Virus record (IMG/VR): IMGVR_UViG_3300009515_000001
Source: a virus
Lineage: Duplodnaviria > Heunggongvirae > Uroviricota > Caudoviricetes
Direction: 5' to 3' (one strand)
Length of the DNA stretch: 64,000 bases
Position 1 is the stretch's first letter. Each line of letters opens with the position of its first letter. Made by a program: the position numbers and the translations under genes. Under the pieces are notes generated by a model. That model searched no databases and was not told the origin of the DNA. It was given only the letters and a program-made list of their open reading frames with translations. Positions 17,745 to 64,000 of this stretch are shown in pieces.

Positions 17745-18409
17745 TGGTATTATTCCTTGACAGACCTGATACAAAATTTTTAATCCAGCAAAAAGGATGT
17801 GCGCCATCAGAAGCATTTGCTATTCTTGAAAGAGGTGGAGATCCATCAAAAAAATGTGGTGGCAGACTTGGTAGTGCAAGAAACATTTCACAGCTAAGAG
17901 AGCAATTTCCAGGATTTGATTCAGCGTATAGTCAAACATTAGCAATCTTACAAGCAGAAGAAGAAGAAGCAAAAAAGTCAGCCCCACCACCACCACCACC
18001 TCCACCACCAGTAGTTGAAGAACCACCACCACCAGTAGTTGAACCACCACCAGTAGTTGAAGAACCACCACCACCAATACCAGATCCAATAGGTTCAGAT
18101 CCATTAGGGGTAACAGTAAAAAGAAAGAAATCAAGATTAGATAAGGTAAGACAAAAAACAGCTCAACGTAGGGGTAAACCAATACCAAAGGACATTGATA
18201 TTGCTGCACAGTTTGGATTTCAGGGGATAGTAACAAAACCTACAAGATTCTTGGTCGGTGAAGCAGGACCTGAAAGAGTAATGATTAAACCAATCAAAAA
18301 AGCAAAAAATATTTTTGATTTTAACTTTGCAAAACCAAGAAAATCAGCAAGAAGAAGAAAAAATAATAATTTCATGTTTGACTTTGACTTTGGGAAGGGC
18401 ATATTCTAA
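17744..18409 (+). CDS. protein with PPPPVVEE proline-repeat linker, ends FMFDFDFGKGIF
   Basis: Tandem CCACCACCAGTAGTTGAAGAA DNA repeats at about 17985-18078. Confidence 0.55.
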   Translation: MVLFLDRPDTKFLIQQKGCAPSEAFAILERGGDPSKKCGGRLGSARNISQLREQFPGFDSAYSQTLAILQAEEEEAKKSAPPPPPPPPPVVEEPPPPVVEPPPVVEEPPPPIPDPIGSDPLGVTVKRKKSRLDKVRQKTAQRRGKPIPKDIDIAAQFGFQGIVTKPTRFLVGEAGPERVMIKPIKKAKNIFDFNFAKPRKSARRRKNNNFMFDFDFGKGIF

Positions 18410-25427: not shown

Positions 25428-25720
25428 CGATAATAAAAACAAGTAAGGAATGGCAACTTTTCACCTTTATCCCATTTATCATAGGTGCAATATTTAGTGG
25501 TGTTGTGATCCCTATTTTTTGGATTTTAGAAATTATTCCAACATGGAGTTTGTTTTTTTTGGGTATAATTCCATTGATAATAGGATTATTTATTACAGAT
25601 GTTTTTAGACATTTAGAATACAAACCAGGTGAACCAAGCAGAAAATGTCACCAATGTGGTTTGGATGTTTATGTTTCTAGTATGGAAGAACATCTAAAAT
25701 TTTGTGGTGAATACAACTGA
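25424..25720 (+). CDS. membrane protein with C-terminal zinc-binding motif
   Basis: Two TM helices plus CHQCG...HLKFC. Confidence 0.45.
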   Translation: MTIIKTSKEWQLFTFIPFIIGAIFSGVVIPIFWILEIIPTWSLFFLGIIPLIIGLFITDVFRHLEYKPGEPSRKCHQCGLDVYVSSMEEHLKFCGEYN

Positions 25721-25919
25721 AAAAAAAATTTTCAAAAGATTTATTGATTGGAATATTTGGAATTCAGTTAGGAATTGCAGGATTACTTTTAGTTATTTGG
25801 TTTTTCTTAGAGTTGTTCAATTCGGTTGGATTACCTGAATACCTAATTATTTTATTTTTAGGCATGTTAATAGTATTATTTTTAGGCATGTTAACTGTTA
25901 GAAATATTGCTGGGAAATT

Positions 25920-26120
25920 TTGAGTGAATACTGTCCTATTTGTAATGAAAGACTTGCAAACTCGGATCATGTTATAAGGTGGATTCACGATATTATCAAA
26001 CATAGAAACTATTGGAAAGGTCAGACAGACGTTATGACAAAGAATCAGTTAAACGAAGTTCTATTTGAGATCATTGACTATTTTCATAAAAGAGAAAAGG
26101 ATGGAGTTGGAAGGATTTGA
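25920..26120 (+). CDS. small C2H2-like zinc-finger protein; 3' end overlaps tRNA on opposite strand
   Basis: CPICNERLANSDHVIRWIHDIIKH. Confidence 0.4.
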   Translation: MSEYCPICNERLANSDHVIRWIHDIIKHRNYWKGQTDVMTKNQLNEVLFEIIDYFHKREKDGVGRI

Positions 26121-26176
26121 ACCTTCGACCTCTAGCTCCCAAAGCTAGCTGGCTATCCAGACTACCGCACAACTCC
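26102..26176 (-). tRNA. tRNA-Pro (anticodon UGG)
   Basis: Minus-strand GGAGTTG acceptor stem pairs with CAACTCC. Anticodon stem CTAGC/GCTAG with loop TTTGGGA. T-arm GAAGG-TTCAAAT-CCTTC; D-loop AGTCTGGATA. D-stem has a C10-A25 mismatch and CCA is not encoded. Confidence 0.8.
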
Positions 26177-26784
26177 GATAGTCATTTGATGTGTAGGGAG
26201 GGCGTGCAGCGTTTTAACGCCACTTGGCAATTGAGAGTTCCCCACACACCAATAAAAGTAATCACATCATAATGTAATAACATCTATGGACTTGATAGTC
26301 TAGAACAGACTGTAAACTGTGCGGATAAACCGTACGGTTTGTTAAAGGATCGTTTAATTGGTATTTTCAGTAATCAGTTCGATCAGAAAGCTGAAACTTC
26401 AGTATTCAGTTTTAACGAATTACCATTAATCGGAAAGGCCGCAACACGCCTGGAGAAACACCAGCCCCTGGGGATTTAACCCATGCGTGGACCAGTTTCA
26501 GCAATTTCAAAATCCAACTACTGAAAATTTCAGTAGCGATCATGGATCTTGGAAAAGGAATATGAAGTTAAATGCAATTATCAATTCAGGAAACTGTTTT
26601 TATATTGCTTATAACATATTATAACTGATTCCTGGTGACAGTACCATTATTTTCACTTTGGGATCATTCAACAGGTGGCTGGCATTGGATGAGATTTCAT
26701 TCTTGCCCCACCAATAACTTTTTACGATTTAACAATGTAGTATAGTTGCTTCTGAATCAAGCGATGTCGAAGCGTACATTCGTT

Positions 26785-26826
26785 CAAGCAGGGGTGGATT
26801 TTGTTACCCCTTGCTTGAATTTTTTT
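26785..26826 (+). terminator. hairpin (about 11 bp, one bulge) followed by T7 tract; terminator-like on + strand
   Basis: CAAGCAGGGGT-loop-ACCCCTTGCTTG then AATTTTTTT. Confidence 0.4.
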
Positions 26827-26916
26827 GTCTAGTTGTTCTTATTACGATTGGAGATGTAGTATATTCACTCCGTTTGATTTGGTCGTCAATCGAGTATTGG
26901 GTGACAACCTAGTTGA

Positions 26917-27462
26917 ATGATCCCAAGTCATGTTTATAACATCTATTTAGTGATAGCAGTGATAATGGCATTAAAACATAAAATCAGCAGACTTTGGTTT
27001 TATTTTAGGGCTGGTTACGGTTTCTATTTCGTTTTTATCATTAGTGGTTTGAACGCATTGATGATCGCATACTTTCTTGTCTTGGGATCAGTAGAGTGTG
27101 AAGCTGGTCAACCTTTGGAACAGACAGGTAGATACATCTGTGCAATACGATGGATGTTCCCAACATTTGCCCACTTTGTTGTTGGGGCTATTGCAATAGG
27201 ATTTCCTTTGCTAATGACAGTTGGTTATTTTCATTATCAAAAAAACCAATATGGAACTCATGCACATGTTAACTGGACAACAAATCCATACCAAAAAATT
27301 ACACTTCAACTATTTCTAGAGTTGATAGCTGAAATGAAAAAAGAAGAGCTGAATGAAGAACGGAGAAAAAGGTTTGAAGAAATGGAAAATAAAATTATAG
27401 ATTTCTTAGAAGATAAAAGGTTACAGGACAAACCAGAAGATGAACTCTTTAAACAATTCTAA
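26917..27462 (+). CDS. membrane protein (4 TM) with charged coiled C-terminus
   Basis: ORF track. Confidence 0.5.
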   Translation: MIPSHVYNIYLVIAVIMALKHKISRLWFYFRAGYGFYFVFIISGLNALMIAYFLVLGSVECEAGQPLEQTGRYICAIRWMFPTFAHFVVGAIAIGFPLLMTVGYFHYQKNQYGTHAHVNWTTNPYQKITLQLFLELIAEMKKEELNEERRKRFEEMENKIIDFLEDKRLQDKPEDELFKQF

Positions 27463-27757
27463 AAAGAAAAAATGCAGAATTAGTGGGCATATTCATTTAA
27501 AAAATGGGGTGTGTGCTGAACTATTATGATCAAAGTTGATGGCGGTTTCATCTGTACGAGATGTAACCCAAGTGTTTTTATCGCAACAAAAAAACTTGAA
27601 CAACATATTAAGGAGTATCATTTCAAGGAGTGAATGGATGTTGAATACTGTAAGATATGTGGTAATCAATTAATGGGCGAATGTTGTGTTTGTGACAAAT
27701 GTTACCTTGATTCTAATTGACAAAAATTCATATTAATAATTTCAGACTACCAAAAAC

Positions 27758-29807: not shown

Positions 29808-29821
29808 TTCTTTTAAATAAC
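29808..29821 (+). promoter_or_regulatory. TTCTTTTAAATAAC promoter box; implies true start ATG 29845 for the next gene
   Basis: One-mismatch copy of the recurring box. Confidence 0.45.
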
Positions 29822-29826
29822 CTAAA

Positions 29827-30906
29827 TTGTTAAAAAAAATTCGTATGGTACTGTCACTGGCGTTTATTATCGCTTTCATAGGTGCAGCAGTTGCTCTTTT
29901 AATAGGAATTTTAATATTTTCAGAAGTTTCAGACAGTCTGGTATGCCCAGCTCCCGCTGGTGGTGGGGGAACTGTTGATATTACAGGCTATGATAATCTT
30001 GGATCGATAGGTTCATCAGCGGATGCGAATTATTTTGATGATGGTGATCCATTTAATTTTACTTCTGTGACAGGTATAATTAATGAAGGTGCGTTCCAAA
30101 ACGGTACAGCAACAGGTGGTAATGAAGCTGTAATAGTATTTGCACCATCACTTGCAGTAACATCAGACTTTGACTTTTTACATCAAGGCACAACTGGTAA
30201 CAACATTACAAGCATAAATTTCTGGATGAAGGGAGATGTAGATGGAGCACCTGCATATCCAGTTTTAAACACTGGTTCTAGTGATTCTGGTGGCACAGGA
30301 TTATCAGTTTGGACACAATCTGGAACAACTACATACTTTACAATTTATGAAGGCGGTGGAACTTCACTTGTAGATCAAAGCTCAATAGCCCAAATTCCAG
30401 ATGATGCAAGTTGGCACATGATAACTTATGTTTATGATAAAGGTAATATGACTAGTAATTTCGGATTTATGTGCTTAGACGCTTCTTGTACTAACACTGG
30501 CACAATAATTGGAACTCCATTTTCTGCTGAAACAAATTCAGCAGCTAACCCATTAACATTAGGTGGTGGAACTGGTTATGCTTCTGGACCAGTCGAAAAT
30601 GAGTTTGATGTCGATGAAATTATAATTTGGCAAGGTTATCAATTAACACAGTCAGATATTGATAATATGTATAATTCTGGATCAGGTGCAACAGGAATAG
30701 GAATCGCAAGTGGTTCACAAGTTTTAGCAGTTACATTTGATGAAGGTTCACAACAAGTAGTTGTAAGTGGCGGTAGTGGTGGTCAAGGTTCAGACGAATG
30801 TGAACAAGCCAAAGATACTGCATGGACTGTTATAGGCATATTGCCTGTTGCTTTATTCTTTGCCCTCTTTGCAATATTTGGTAGCTTAGGTGGCAGACAA
30901 AGTTAA
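29827..30906 (+). CDS. membrane-anchored protein with concanavalin/LamG-like (Laminin_G_3-like) beta-sandwich domain
   Basis: N- and C-terminal TM helices; SWHMITYVYDKGNMTSNFGFMCLDASC resembles the Laminin_G_3 core; Gly/Thr/Ser-rich. Confidence 0.5.
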   Translation: MLKKIRMVLSLAFIIAFIGAAVALLIGILIFSEVSDSLVCPAPAGGGGTVDITGYDNLGSIGSSADANYFDDGDPFNFTSVTGIINEGAFQNGTATGGNEAVIVFAPSLAVTSDFDFLHQGTTGNNITSINFWMKGDVDGAPAYPVLNTGSSDSGGTGLSVWTQSGTTTYFTIYEGGGTSLVDQSSIAQIPDDASWHMITYVYDKGNMTSNFGFMCLDASCTNTGTIIGTPFSAETNSAANPLTLGGGTGYASGPVENEFDVDEIIIWQGYQLTQSDIDNMYNSGSGATGIGIASGSQVLAVTFDEGSQQVVVSGGSGGQGSDECEQAKDTAWTVIGILPVALFFALFAIFGSLGGRQS

Positions 30907-35665: not shown

Positions 35666-35810
35666 AATAATACCAAAAGACAGTGAAGTTGCTGAAGAAG
35701 TTTCAGTAATGAAGTTTGATTCCAATTATGTTTGGGATAAAACTGTCTTGGATACAATAGATCACTATCTAAAAAACGACCAGATTATAGAGGTTAAATT
35801 AATAAAATGA
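35604..35810 (+). CDS. small protein
   Basis: ORF track. Confidence 0.35.
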   Translation: MIDCFTEIQIGEKKMGELFIKIIPKDSEVAEEVSVMKFDSNYVWDKTVLDTIDHYLKNDQIIEVKLIK

Positions 35811-46409: not shown

Positions 46410-47111
46410 TTGAAAACAATTCCCAACGATCACAAATCTGAAGCTGGTAAGTGGTATGATTTCGATGGACAGATTAAAGTCGAGGAAGTTGAAAAGGATT
46501 TTGACCAGTATGATCACAACGAAAAACAACCAGTTTATAGAATCTCACTAAAAATCCCATCAAAATATGCAGTTGGAATTCATAAAAAAGAATGTGTAAT
46601 TAGCGGCGTAGAAAGGAATTGGGCTACATATTACTATCAAGGTTTGAGTGATCCAATACCAAAAGCCATGATGAACATGTCCTCAAAAATTCGGGATTTA
46701 AATCGTCAGCTAAATGAACTAAAACAAAGAAACCACGCACTAGAATTACACTTTACAAGAACAAGATTTGAAGAAGATTTAGAGTATTCCCGAAGGAAAA
46801 AAGAAAAAGAGGAATGTCAATATTGTTACAAAGAGATTGAAAAAACAAAACAGATTGAAGGAAGAGATTGGTTCTACCTAAACGAAGATGGAATCATGCA
46901 CATTAATTGCGGTGTAAAATGCTTTGATTCAATCTGTACTGAATGTAACGCAGTCTTTGAAGCAGATTATTGTGAAGAAGATGGTTGTCCAAACTGTGAC
47001 GGAAGAATGAGATCTGCAAAGAAAAAAGAGATTAAGGAACATCTTGTGTATAACGCAATCAAACGTTACCTTCCAAATGAGCTACAAAACAAAGTAGTAA
47101 TGAAAGAATAG
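46410..47111 (+). CDS. Cys-rich multi-zinc-finger protein
   Basis: CQYCYKE...CGVKC...CTECN...CPNCDG. Confidence 0.5.
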   Translation: MKTIPNDHKSEAGKWYDFDGQIKVEEVEKDFDQYDHNEKQPVYRISLKIPSKYAVGIHKKECVISGVERNWATYYYQGLSDPIPKAMMNMSSKIRDLNRQLNELKQRNHALELHFTRTRFEEDLEYSRRKKEKEECQYCYKEIEKTKQIEGRDWFYLNEDGIMHINCGVKCFDSICTECNAVFEADYCEEDGCPNCDGRMRSAKKKEIKEHLVYNAIKRYLPNELQNKVVMKE

Positions 47112-61263: not shown

Positions 61264-61274
61264 TCTATATTCAG

Positions 61275-61397
61275 TTAGTGATACCAAGTAGTGATAATAA
61301 TTTATCATTTTTATTATCACTTAGATCTATTTTCAGTTAGTGATAATGTAGACCACTAGTGATAACAAGTAGTGATAACCTGGAAGGTAGTGATACC
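61275..61397. repeat. cluster of 6 direct plus 1 inverted TAGTGATA(A/C) iteron-like repeats, ending in palindrome CCTGGCAACCAGG
   Basis: Read directly from sequence. Confidence 0.75.
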
Positions 61398-61487
61398 TGG
61401 CAACCAGGCGCACAATTATTTTTGTATTTTTCTGACAACAATTTTTCAGTTACGTGCCTGTAATAATTTTCAGTTATAATTTTTTAG

Positions 61488-61554
61488 TGGTTAACATATT
61501 GTTGGTTAACATATTGTTGGTTAACATATTGTTGGTTAACATATTGTTGGTTAA
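61488..61554. repeat. 4.5 tandem copies of 15-mer GGTTAACATATTGTT
   Basis: Read directly from sequence. Confidence 0.9.
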
Positions 61555-61799
61555 CTACCTAAGATTAATCTTAATTCAATCTTAGAATTTATACCTAGAT
61601 TTATTTAATAAATAAAATACCTTGATCTTTAATCTTAAATTAAGATCTGAAATTTCAGATAATCATTTTATATTAAAATCTGAAAAGCTGAAATTTTTTA
61701 AAGTCTGTAATTTACGCCTAAGCATTTTTAGATATACCCTTTTTGTATGTTCATTTAAACACACAAGTGATTTATTAATATACGTACATATTTAAAATT

Positions 61800-63038: not shown

Positions 63039-64000
63039 TTGTCTATACAAAATTCCCAAAAAATCGATCCTTCTTCTGATGATTCATTAAAAGAATTTTC
63101 AGAAGAAGATCGAAAATTTGTTTTAGATTTTATTAGTATGTTTTCAGCAATTAAAAATAAACCATTAAAAATATTTTTCAATAATAATTCAGGTAAGCAT
63201 TTTATTACTTATAATAAATATGAAAAAGAATATCAGATCTATACAGATCCTTATGATGAAAAAATTTATTGGAAAACTGCGATCGAGCATGAAGTAAGCC
63301 ATTTATTATTTGATACAAAATTCGATTCATTCAAAAGATATGCTAATGAAATAATTTCTAATTGTCCTTATGAATTAAGATCAATTAGTTTCAAAAGTAT
63401 TCACACGATCTATAATGTGTTTGAAGATATGAGGATCGAATCATGGTTCGGAAAATACAAACAAGGATTTAGAAAAAGAATAATTCAAACTAGAAAATCA
63501 TTAGGAAAAGATCCGCAAATAGTAAAAGGCGATCCAGATAATCCAATTTCAGCTTTATTATATTCTAGATTTTTTAGAAACGATTTAGTAAGATTATCTA
63601 ATTTTAAAGTGTGTGAAGATTACATAAACAAATCTGAATTTATTAACCCTAAAGGATCAATTCTTTTAGTTAAAGATTTTTACGATAAAGTTTTTCTACC
63701 ATTCTTAAAAGAACAAAAAGAAAAACAAAAGGAAAAAGAAAAACAAAAAGAGAATCAAAAAAATGAAACTGAAAATTCAGATCCAAAAGGAACTGAAAAT
63801 TCAAAAGATGATTCAAATAAAAAACAATCAGAAGATCAAAAAGATAATTCAGACAATGAAGATCCAGAAGATAAAGATCCAGAAGATAAAGATCCAGACT
63901 TTAACGATTTAGATTCTGATGATTCAGATAACGATTTAGATTCTGATGATTCAGATAACGATTTAGATTCTGATGATTCAGATAACGATTTAGATTCTGA
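63039..64000 (+). CDS. partial CDS (runs off window): HExxH-motif protein with Asp/Ser-rich acidic repeat tail; possible metallopeptidase-like partner of the AAA_5 ATPase
   Basis: TTG start 63039; AIEHEVSHLL (HExxH); frame stays open to window end. Confidence 0.5.
   Translation, partial: MSIQNSQKIDPSSDDSLKEFSEEDRKFVLDFISMFSAIKNKPLKIFFNNNSGKHFITYNKYEKEYQIYTDPYDEKIYWKTAIEHEVSHLLFDTKFDSFKRYANEIISNCPYELRSISFKSIHTIYNVFEDMRIESWFGKYKQGFRKRIIQTRKSLGKDPQIVKGDPDNPISALLYSRFFRNDLVRLSNFKVCEDYINKSEFINPKGSILLVKDFYDKVFLPFLKEQKEKQKEKEKQKENQKNETENSDPKGTENSKDDSNKKQSEDQKDNSDNEDPEDKDPEDKDPDFNDLDSDDSDNDLDSDDSDNDLDSDDSDNDLDS
63906..64000. repeat. 3.5 tandem copies of 27-nt GATTTAGATTCTGATGATTCAGATAAC (encodes DLDSDDSDN repeats)
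   Basis: Read directly from sequence. Confidence 0.9.

Follow-up and report, generated by a model that had tools for sequence, protein, structure and literature searches.

What could be the function of an island of ~0.75 kb that holds no open reading frame (ORF), is rich in stable hairpins and lies beside a tRNA gene in a viral genome? The question is posed by the IMG/VR record IMGVR_UViG_3300009515_000001 (Caudoviricetes). This element is a metagenomic contig of 92,862 bp (at least 93 kb), of which 64 kb (64,000 nucleotides, called the window below) were examined here, and its island is placed between a block of DNA methylase genes and the gene of a ~165-residue membrane protein. An earlier note, made from the letters of the window alone, had taken the island for one or more structured non-coding RNAs or a long structured tRNA leader and, alternatively, for a remnant integration target. 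Comparison with relatives suggests a conserved, non-coding control hub; the element itself is uncultured, AT-rich, virus-like and probably archaeal. One of the units of the island, a putative small RNA named RNA1, carries sequence complementary to two start codons of the element and so most likely silences the genes concerned. We give this reading, in which RNA1 pairs with the start regions of two leaderless viral mRNAs and switches them off, a probability of about 0.7.

Conservation of the island

Relatives of the locus were collected as contigs carrying homologs of the downstream ~165-residue gene (20 homologs) and by a scan for the 5′ end of RNA2, a second unit of the island described below. 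This yielded ~13 distinct metagenomic loci. In every relative fetched, a gene-free gap of 580–960 nt lies upstream of the same gene, and the gaps are collinear with the island at ~70% identity. The window and its close relative L013 are 93–98% identical in the core of the island and in RNA1, compared with ~79% over the whole aligned stretch including the adjacent gene. No complete tRNA was found in the gaps of the relatives (30 loci checked), and the window is alone among all relatives examined in having a tRNA at this position. Since the gap is homologous in relatives that lack the tRNA, it is the island that is conserved across the family, with the tRNA as an accessory of this genome.

The island has no conserved ORF. 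Its four ORFs of 43–51 residues run into in-frame stops in L013, L024 and L008, so coding by them was rejected and the earlier description of the island as ORF-free holds. The GC content of 38.6%, against a window mean of 33.6%, places the island in the top 5% of 740-nt windows. The GC enrichment seen before is real, but it is modest and confined to the structured parts, namely the tRNA (52%), a minus-strand stem element (52%), the core (43%) and RNA1 (41%). Both strands fold below shuffled sequence, with z = −6.6 for the plus strand and −4.3 for the minus strand.

At least three small-RNA-like units with promoter-like boxes, covarying helices and U-run ends can be discerned, in line with the structured non-coding RNAs proposed initially. 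A covariation check across homologous loci, which the note had named, supports helices P1 and P3 of RNA1 and the hairpin of RNA2. Most of the structured RNA reads on the plus strand and not, as had been thought, on that of the tRNA. The island is probably a conserved cluster of separate small transcription units, as judged from these features, and neither a single RNA nor mainly a tRNA leader.

RNA1 and its predicted fold

RNA1 is preceded by TATA box 1 (TTTTTATATT, 26597–26606, plus strand), which is conserved in 13/13 relatives. All 13 loci share TTTTTATA(T/A)T followed, 20–23 nt later, by GAU(U/C)(C/U), and an archaeal TATA box is expected to lie this far from the start of transcription. 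RNA1 probably starts with GAUUCC, ~22 nt after the box. Its minimal form would span 26627–26723 on the plus strand and could extend to a T7 run at 26826, for a length of ~100–200 nt. It is predicted to be a discrete short transcript with its own promoter and terminator.

In the predicted fold, the 5′ end forms helix P1, the other end is a terminal hairpin P3 ahead of U-runs, and a variable hairpin, P2, lies between them. In P1, GAUYY (26627–26632) pairs with GGAUC (26660–26665); the helix forms in 12/13 loci and is lengthened by covarying, group-specific extensions (CC/GG, CU/AG, UAAAA/UUUUG and UGAAUG/CAUUUG). Two invariant segments accompany it: seed 1 (GUGACAGUACCAU, 26635–26647) and seed 2 (UUGGGAUCAUUCAAC, 26658–26672), which is made up of the 3′ strand of P1 and the linker. 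P3 (GGTGGCTGGCA...TGCCCCACC) occupies 26674–26713, almost exactly where a hairpin had been noticed near 26672–26712. Its base helix covaries and was predicted independently by RNAalifold; it is 98.7% paired and has two compensatory pairs. None of 500 shuffles reached its covariation score, and slid registers came nowhere near it. A U5 run (26719–26723) follows. In 9 of 11 loci, folding of RNA1 favours the plus over the minus strand by 10–20 kcal/mol.

Downstream of the U5 run lies a variable segment (26724–26826). The plus-strand hairpin with a T7 run reported for this segment is present (26783–26819 and 26820–26826), but the stem is not kept in the close relatives L013 and L024, whereas a T7–8 run is; the relatives have differing hairpins here. 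The stretch 26718–26744 is a 22/27-nt duplicate of the RNA2 promoter box.

Complementarity of seed 1 to the start of gene X

The most conserved part of RNA1 is the seed 1 stretch GUGACAGUACCA(U) at 26635–26647. One other copy, an exact 12-mer complement on the opposite strand, exists in the window, at 29846–29857, and it falls on the start codon of a conserved gene for a 353-residue protein, here called gene X, 3.2 kb downstream of RNA1. The target region (29808–29861, plus strand) contains a TTCTTTTAAATAA box (29808–29820) and the gene X start ATG at 29845 (AUGGUACUGUCAC). Because this ATG is only 25 nt after the box, the gene X mRNA appears to be leaderless.

The complementarity is found in 10/10 loci that hold both parts. 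It extends over 12–19 contiguous bp, AUG included, with compensatory changes at four positions. At the first base of the start codon, A-U is replaced by U-A in L001, which has a TTG start and in which RNA1 reads ...ACCAA versus ...ACCAU. Position −1 is U-A or C-G and position −2 is G-C or A-U; together these positions are AC in L008 (GU in RNA1) and GU in L011, L016 and L017 (AC in RNA1). Codon 5 ends in U, A or G, opposite A, U or U respectively, giving U-A, A-U and G·U pairs. Single-sided changes (L013, L012 and L019) all produce G·U in the RNA1/mRNA sense. The third positions of gene X codons 2–4 are invariant, and later codons vary. The gene X site is the best whole-locus RNA1 duplex in L011, L016, L005, L012 and L019 and the best or near-best in most loci. 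The conservation, the covariation of the helices and the intermolecular complementarity with its compensatory changes are seen directly in the aligned sequences.

The gene X product has hydrophobic N- and C-terminal segments and is membrane-anchored. Neither gene X itself nor ORF 2475, the second target discussed below, has a significant Pfam or NCBIfam match, but PF13385 (Laminin_G_3) is found on two homologs of gene X, whose product is plausibly a LamG-like surface or virion protein. The first ~35 residues (MVLSLGFILAFIGAAVALLIGILIFSEVSD, 29845–29950) recur in ~40 otherwise different proteins (P0055–P0094) of 240–560 residues, with identities of up to 94% and mostly of 50–90%; two of the carriers contain BNR repeats. 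Judged from these matches, the N-terminus is a portable membrane module, and its coding sequence may be a shared target of RNA1.

Seed 2, ORF 2475 and RNA2

The second remote target is located at 2440–2488 on the plus strand. It comprises a TATA box (ATTTTTATAT, 2440–2449) and, ~24 nt further on, GUUGAGUGAUCCCAA (2474–2488), which is the 5′ end and TTG start of ORF 2475–2834. Seed 2 pairs with it over 15 bp with one G·U, and this site gives the best RNA1 duplex on the whole 64-kb plus strand (−35.5 kcal/mol). An 11-nt complement of seed 2 (TTGAGTGATCC) also occurs at 46644–46654 (plus strand) inside ORF 46410–47111, where it may be a chance match or a further target.

A perfect 15-nt complement of seed 2 is found at 26912–26926, within the second plus-strand unit of the island, RNA2 (26867–26935). 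RNA2 is preceded by TATA box 2 (CTTATTACGATT, 26838–26849, plus strand), the TTATTAC core of which starts 28 nt before it, and has a near-invariant 24-nt 5′ end (ACUCCGUUUGAUUUGGUCGUCAAU, 26867–26890). The stretch 26912–26926 (GUUGAAUGAUCCCAA) is the seed 2 complement in the window and L011 subgroups. Five loci of the L001/L008, L005/L012 and L022 subgroups have a 12-bp hairpin instead, which shows five compensatory pairs across these loci and is followed by a U-rich stretch. In the window, the plus strand of RNA2 is the more stable one. Complements of the 24-mer are chance-level 9–10-mers only, except for GAUUGACGAC in the RNA1 hairpin of the L011 group. RNA2 would be either a second regulator or, in the subgroup of the window, a decoy or target of seed 2.

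Proposed mode of action

Seed 1 of RNA1 would pair with the extreme 5′ end and the start codon of the leaderless gene X mRNA. Seed 2 would pair with the 5′ end and TTG start of the ORF 2475 mRNA and with the internal RNA2 site. The duplex could block loading of the ribosome and initiator tRNA and/or be marked for cleavage. Two genes, one of them for a surface or structural protein, would thereby be silenced or timed in their expression. In some lineages RNA2 would act as a partner or decoy. A third unit, the stem element with its promoter-like box on the minus strand, would read into tRNA-Pro in this genome. We infer the starts and ends of transcription, as well as the direction and timing of the regulation, from the arrangement of these parts.

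Several points weigh against this scheme. When the whole of RNA1 is used as the query, the gene X site in the window ranks only 71st of 21,324 windows. About 40 other proteins share the highly conserved first 30 residues of gene X, so part of the target conservation is coding constraint. Furthermore, the relatives fall into ~5 subgroups, which makes the compensatory events few and phylogenetically non-independent, and in the distant loci L003 and L007 a search for antisense pairing like that of RNA1 and gene X gave AT-rich background matches only. Within RNA1, the pairing of P2 differs between subgroups, and L008 has a degenerate P1 and seed 2. The pairing of seed 2 with ORF 2475 is known from the window alone, as the relatives' loci stop short of this gene, and RNA2 of the L001, L008, L005 and L022 groups lacks the seed 2 complement. 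Finally, every RNA start and end is placed by motif spacing, and the domain of the host is deduced from sequence features.

The minus-strand stem element and tRNA-Pro

The third unit is a stem element (HE) of ~67 nt at 26186–26252 on the minus strand, delimited by folding and by comparison of 10 loci. Its terminal helix consists of 14 bp (26186–26199 with 26239–26252), of which two are G·U pairs specific to the minus strand; a minus-strand helix with two wobble pairs had been recognized before, at a position that was off by ~12–15 nt. The helix encloses the invariant CUCUCAAUUGCCA (26225–26237) and CUGCACGCCC (26200–26209), which surround a small hairpin and contain the invariant motifs CUCUCAAU..GCCA and CUG(C/U)ACGCCC. 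A TATA-like box (GTTATTACATTA, 26270–26281, minus strand) with a putative promoter function has its TTATTAC core 28 nt upstream of the stem element, a spacing equal to that before RNA2. The GTTATTAC box before the helix is kept in L024 (BLAST block 26273–26307, 86%).

In the 10 loci, the stem element is found on either strand, at varied genome positions and in two circular permutations. The order is stem-A-hairpin-B-stem in the window, L024, L003, L001 and L008, and stem-B-hairpin-A-stem in L022, L012, L019 and L005. By sequence, the B-then-A order is a circular permutation of a rod in which the conserved loop CUCUCAAU lies opposite ACGCCC, and no DNA inversion. In the five A-then-B loci, the sense strand is more stable by 3–8 kcal/mol and has 2–5 G·U pairs, which form on one strand only. 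The stem elements of L001 and L008 are situated 2.4–3 kb from the gap, after a TTCTTTTAAT box and before a T6 run. Because relatives carry the stem element without an adjacent tRNA, and those in L001 and L008 have a T6 end of their own, it is an independent unit.

On the minus strand, 10 nt separate the stem element from the 5′ end of the downstream tRNA, and this interval contains no T-run. The tRNA-Pro(UGG) gene (26102–26176, minus strand) was identified by ARAGORN and by Rfam (RF00005, 56.2 bits versus a gathering score of 29), which upholds the original assignment together with its mismatch and missing CCA. It has G1–C72 and A73 and encodes no CCA. In the D-stem, pair 10–25 is C10·A25, which cmscan marks as non-standard; the other three pairs form, with U·G at 13–22. 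A U-rich tract (UCCUUUUCUCUUUUAUG in the minus-strand reading, 26085–26101) directly after the tRNA would end a transcript that contains both the stem element and the tRNA. We envisage a single transcript cleaved by RNase P, and the tRNA as captured into a pre-existing small-RNA unit. The proposed long tRNA leader fits the first ~90 nt, which include the stem element, but the remainder of the island is conserved without the tRNA and is read from the opposite strand.

A 66-residue ORF (25920–26120, plus strand) shares 19 nt with the tRNA, at the 3′ end of the latter, and overlaps the U-rich tract as well. In the close relative L024, a weak tRNA match (20.9 bits) that is cut off at its 3′ end occupies positions 1–127 of the minus strand, ~350 nt beyond the stem element of that locus. 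The L024 sequence begins with GGATTTGAACC..., and the match, with its span of 127 nt, may contain an intron.

No complements to the loop motifs of the stem element were found in the 64 kb. The stem element has no C/D (RUGAUGA, CUGA) or ACA boxes at the required positions and no Rfam match, and an archaeal H/ACA or C/D-box guide RNA was rejected for lack of these boxes. An H/ACA identity is also excluded because circular permutation is incompatible with a fixed position of ACA. In the stem element of L012, AGAGAAGUCAA recalls the hairpin ribozyme, but given the lack of an Rfam match this is taken as a coincidence. Circular permutation and invariant loop nucleotides are hallmarks of self-cleaving ribozymes and of specific protein-recognition modules. 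Being a circularly permuted rod whose asymmetric internal loop, CUCUCAAU facing ACGCCC, is invariant, the stem element could by analogy be catalytic or serve as the handle of a ribonucleoprotein. A tentative and rather doubtful extension is that it represents an undescribed class of structured RNA, a ~70-nt mobile gene that exists in two permutations and is fused here to a tRNA, and that the island is an RNA switch of an archaeal virus. If this were true, the switch would combine a regulator RNA, a decoy RNA and a third RNA targeting the host.

The central region

The palindromes that had been seen to flank a GC-rich core are indeed present and delimit a control-region-like core at 26391–26533. 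Both are of the CTGAA-N-TTCAG type, CTGAAACTTCAG at 26391–26402 (previously placed at 26389) and CTGAAAATTTCAG at 26521–26533, and they are exactly 130 nt apart in 6 of 8 loci. The GC-rich segment between them contains an imperfect inverted repeat (CACGCCTGG, 26445–26453, and CCATGCGTG, 26481–26489). To the left, at 26314–26338, are two direct copies of the self-complementary AAAC(T/C)GT(G/A)CGG, also found in L013, L024, L015–L017 and L022. In the L011 group, 2–3 GGGACC repeats replace the core. Folding of the core revealed no strand preference and no consistent or shared structure across loci.

The motif CTGAA-N1-5-TTCAG occurs seven times in the window, where 0.59 copies are expected. Among the five sites outside the island, those at 35692 and 61647 lie between listed ORFs (at least 100 residues) and that at 63769 after the last one. 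The palindromes and repeat boxes are most likely regulator-binding sites between divergent units, and CTGAA-N-TTCAG and ACCGTACGGT are candidate sites for DNA-binding proteins of the element, such as its small zinc-finger and wHTH proteins. The region 26253–26600 may also hold a further RNA domain. In more distant relatives, the gaps contain 4–5 copies of TTGCGACTTT (L003, 5417–5700; L022, 1370–1720), of which the island in the window has none.

A second large ORF-free region at 61264–61799 contains five tandem copies of TTGGTTAACATATTG (61477–61555), ~7 AGTGATA/TTCAGTTAGTGATA repeats, the palindrome AGATCTGAAATTTCAGAT and a palindrome cluster. These repeats resemble iterons, and the region could be an origin or another control region.

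The downstream gene and signals of expression

The ~165-residue membrane protein has no significant Pfam or NCBIfam match. Its gene follows TATA box 3 (TTTATAAC, 26933–26940, plus strand) and has its true start at ATG 26965, 24 nt further on. The ORF had been called from 26917, but the homologs cover 91% of that ORF and its frame is broken in L013, which identifies 26965 as the start. The miscalled start also explains an exact-protein look-up that gave no match for the ORF from 26917. The motif (T/C)AGTGATA stands twice right before this ATG (TTAGTGATAGCAGTGATAATG, 26950–26964) and is repeated at 61264–61400; it may be a common regulator-binding site.

The promoter-like TTCTTTTAAATAA motif, present in front of gene X, has 10 copies in the window compared to 1.3 expected. 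Nine are on the plus strand (3594, 10712, 12844, 29808, 57449, 57557, 58229, 58391 and 58777), and in six of these nine an ORF-starting ATG is found 33–37 nt from the motif start. This arrangement suggests that the copies mark a co-regulated set of leaderless genes. No Shine-Dalgarno sequences were seen at gene starts in the window. A scan for sigma-70 promoters and intrinsic terminators returned fewer promoter-like sites than in shuffled sequence and is not informative for this element. The G1–C72 pair and A73 of the tRNA-Pro are what we take, from tRNA-Pro identity rules, to be the archaeal type. Given the spacing of the promoter motifs, the lack of Shine-Dalgarno sequences and these tRNA features, the element, whether a virus or another mobile element, is very probably archaeal and makes leaderless mRNAs. 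Archaeal-type expression is also supported by two products of the window, a CDC48_N domain and a winged helix-turn-helix (wHTH) of Sso10a type.

The ORFs of the window are almost all on the plus strand. Few domains were recognized with Pfam, PHROGs and NCBIfam: a HerA/FtsK-type ATPase with the Sso10a-like wHTH, several DNA methyltransferases, an SPFH protein, AAA ATPases, the CDC48_N-domain protein and DUF5131. Among the 53 window ORFs, Pfam and PHROGs detected no integrase, Rep protein or capsid. Two ORFs contain in-frame tandem repeats, one proline-rich with a repeat of ~21 nt (17978–18085) and the other with three perfect 27-nt copies that reach the window end (63902–64000).

Database searches

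At the gathering threshold of Rfam 15, the tRNA was the sole scorer in the window, in agreement with the failure to recognize any known family by eye. The families covered include RNase P, SRP, tmRNA, GOLLD, ROOL, riboswitches, self-cleaving ribozymes and C/D and H/ACA sRNAs. On 25500–27500 at E ≤ 10, non-tRNA matches scored 16–22 bits against family thresholds of 53–105. Rfam gave nothing in 13 related loci and, at E ≤ 5 in five loci, chance-level matches only. BLAST of the island against 50,697 phage records returned no match, and IMG/VR yielded nothing for any of three queries, namely the downstream protein, a 24-mer from the core and the 5′ end of RNA2. Seven matches to the pattern TATA...GTGRCAGTACCA in IMG/VR (L026–L032) were all chance matches without homology, and the single match in a genome collection (L014, a Terriglobales metagenome-assembled genome) was a GC-rich chance match.

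Alternative explanations

The complementary stretches can also be viewed as DNA. The pairs 26635–26647/29845–29857 and 26658–26672/26912–26926 are perfect inverted repeats of 13 and 15 bp, one of which overlaps the 5′ end of the putative surface-protein gene, the usual location of invertible segments in phages. The repeats would then be crossover sites of an invertase in a phase-variation system of the Mu G/P1 C style, where a flip uncouples gene X, or the downstream gene, from its promoter. This is quite improbable, as no recombinase or invertase domain was found among the 53 scanned ORFs and the orientation is the same in 10/10 relatives. Moreover, the left copy is held at a fixed distance from the conserved TATA box, within a unit defined by a covarying hairpin and a U-run, and wherever the repeat copies differ, the change is a transition that yields a G·U pair at the RNA level, a pattern that favours RNA pairing over DNA identity. 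A different DNA-level explanation makes the island, or at least its left half (26253–26600), an origin or an operator/enhancer whose folds are by-products of dyad symmetry. The excess of CTGAA-N-TTCAG sites and the constant spacing of the island pair speak for it, as do the exchange of the core for GGGACC repeats, the folding of the core without strand bias or common structure and the existence of a similar repeat-rich region at 61264–61799, although that region is the better iteron-like candidate. No replication-initiator gene is adjacent, the cumulative GC skew rises across the region without turning, and the strand-specific G·U pairs, compensatory changes and U-runs of RNA1, RNA2 and the stem element are left unexplained; we regard this reading as unlikely. 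For the left half it is compatible with the small-RNA reading preferred here and is adopted there.

The position of the stem element 10 nt from the tRNA, on the same strand, with minus-only G·U pairs and no T-run between them, would be expected of a long 5′ leader or precursor of tRNA-Pro, and tRNA genes are common integration targets. As an account of the whole island, a tRNA leader or a remnant of tRNA-linked integration is nevertheless very improbable. The relatives keep the island without the tRNA, the plus strand is by far the more stable one for RNA1 and RNA2, copies of the stem element elsewhere have a T6 end of their own, and the leader is contradicted for everything beyond ~26262. The integration site suspected at the outset finds no backing either: no second copy (at least 12 nt) of any tRNA segment exists in the 64 kb examined of the contig of at least 93 kb, Pfam detected no integrase among the 53 ORFs, and syntenic genes of the element lie on both flanks. 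It is also hardly credible that the whole island is one large structured RNA similar to GOLLD (RF01998) or ROOL (RF03087), large phage non-coding RNAs that are often encoded near tRNA genes and form bacterial families. The island shares with them an ORF-free, structured region of several hundred nucleotides (~0.75 kb) beside a tRNA gene in a virus-like genome, and it folds below shuffled sequence on both strands. Unlike them, it is a mosaic of short units with conserved internal TATA boxes and U-runs. From one relative to another its subdomains appear, disappear and change place independently of each other, there is no conserved long-range helix, and the Rfam scans, taken up to E ≤ 10, assigned the island to no family, either in the window or in the 13 related loci.

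Discussion

Small RNAs that block translation starts have been described in phages, namely c4 (immI) of P1/P7, which has two seed segments, and sar of P22. Like them, RNA1 would be a virus-encoded small RNA that presents short exposed seeds to the initiation regions of the virus's own mRNAs, and the two separate seeds and a presumed role in timing or immunity are reminiscent of c4 in particular. The phage RNAs act in bacteria, on Shine-Dalgarno regions and within their own or an overlapping operon. In contrast, the targets of RNA1 are 3.2 kb and 24 kb away and apparently leaderless, the duplex would cover a 5′-terminal start codon, and an archaeal host is probable. RNA1 is homologous to these RNAs neither in sequence nor in structure.

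In archaea, the closest parallel is sRNA162 of Methanosarcina mazei, in which two domains pair with two mRNAs and a single-stranded linker masks a ribosome-binding site (PMC3510493). RNA1 likewise has two seeds for two mRNAs, one of them in a linker between helices. sRNA162 itself is chromosomal, and its targets are an internal ribosome-binding site and the 5′ untranslated region of a cis-encoded mRNA (PMC3510493). RNA1 is borne by a mobile element and would pair with apparently leaderless 5′ termini; the two sequences are unrelated, and RNA1 has no Rfam match. Among archaeal viruses, the halovirus phiH produces T-ant, a cis-encoded and fully complementary antisense RNA of ~150 nt that is linked to the lysis/lysogeny decision. 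Like T-ant, RNA1 would be an antisense RNA directed against the 5′ part of a viral transcript, but RNA1 is trans-encoded and has seeds of 12–19 nt.

Small RNAs can also be released from co-transcripts with tRNAs, as in the archaeal dicistrons of C/D-box sRNAs and tRNAs and in the tRNA–miRNA units of MHV68. The stem element and tRNA-Pro resemble these in being 10 nt apart on one strand behind a single promoter-like box, and an RNase P cut at the tRNA 5′ end would set the 3′ end of the upstream RNA. The stem element differs from those systems in that it has no C/D or H/ACA boxes and that its copies in relatives would be expressed without a tRNA.

What would set this locus apart is the combination of trans-acting seeds directed against the very 5′ end of leaderless mRNAs, a virus family of archaeal type and a permuted stem element. 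Leaderless mRNAs, which are common in several archaeal lineages, offer no ribosome-binding site to mask. To our knowledge, regulation by small RNAs is barely documented for archaeal viruses. The locus presents a concrete case of predicted base-pairing control over the leaderless mRNA of a putative surface protein, and the natural compensatory mutations point to selection on the RNA1–gene X duplex. It adds two further conserved RNA candidates outside the known families, of which one, the permuted stem element, apparently shares a transcript with a tRNA, and the analysis defines promoter motifs for an uncultured lineage of viruses.

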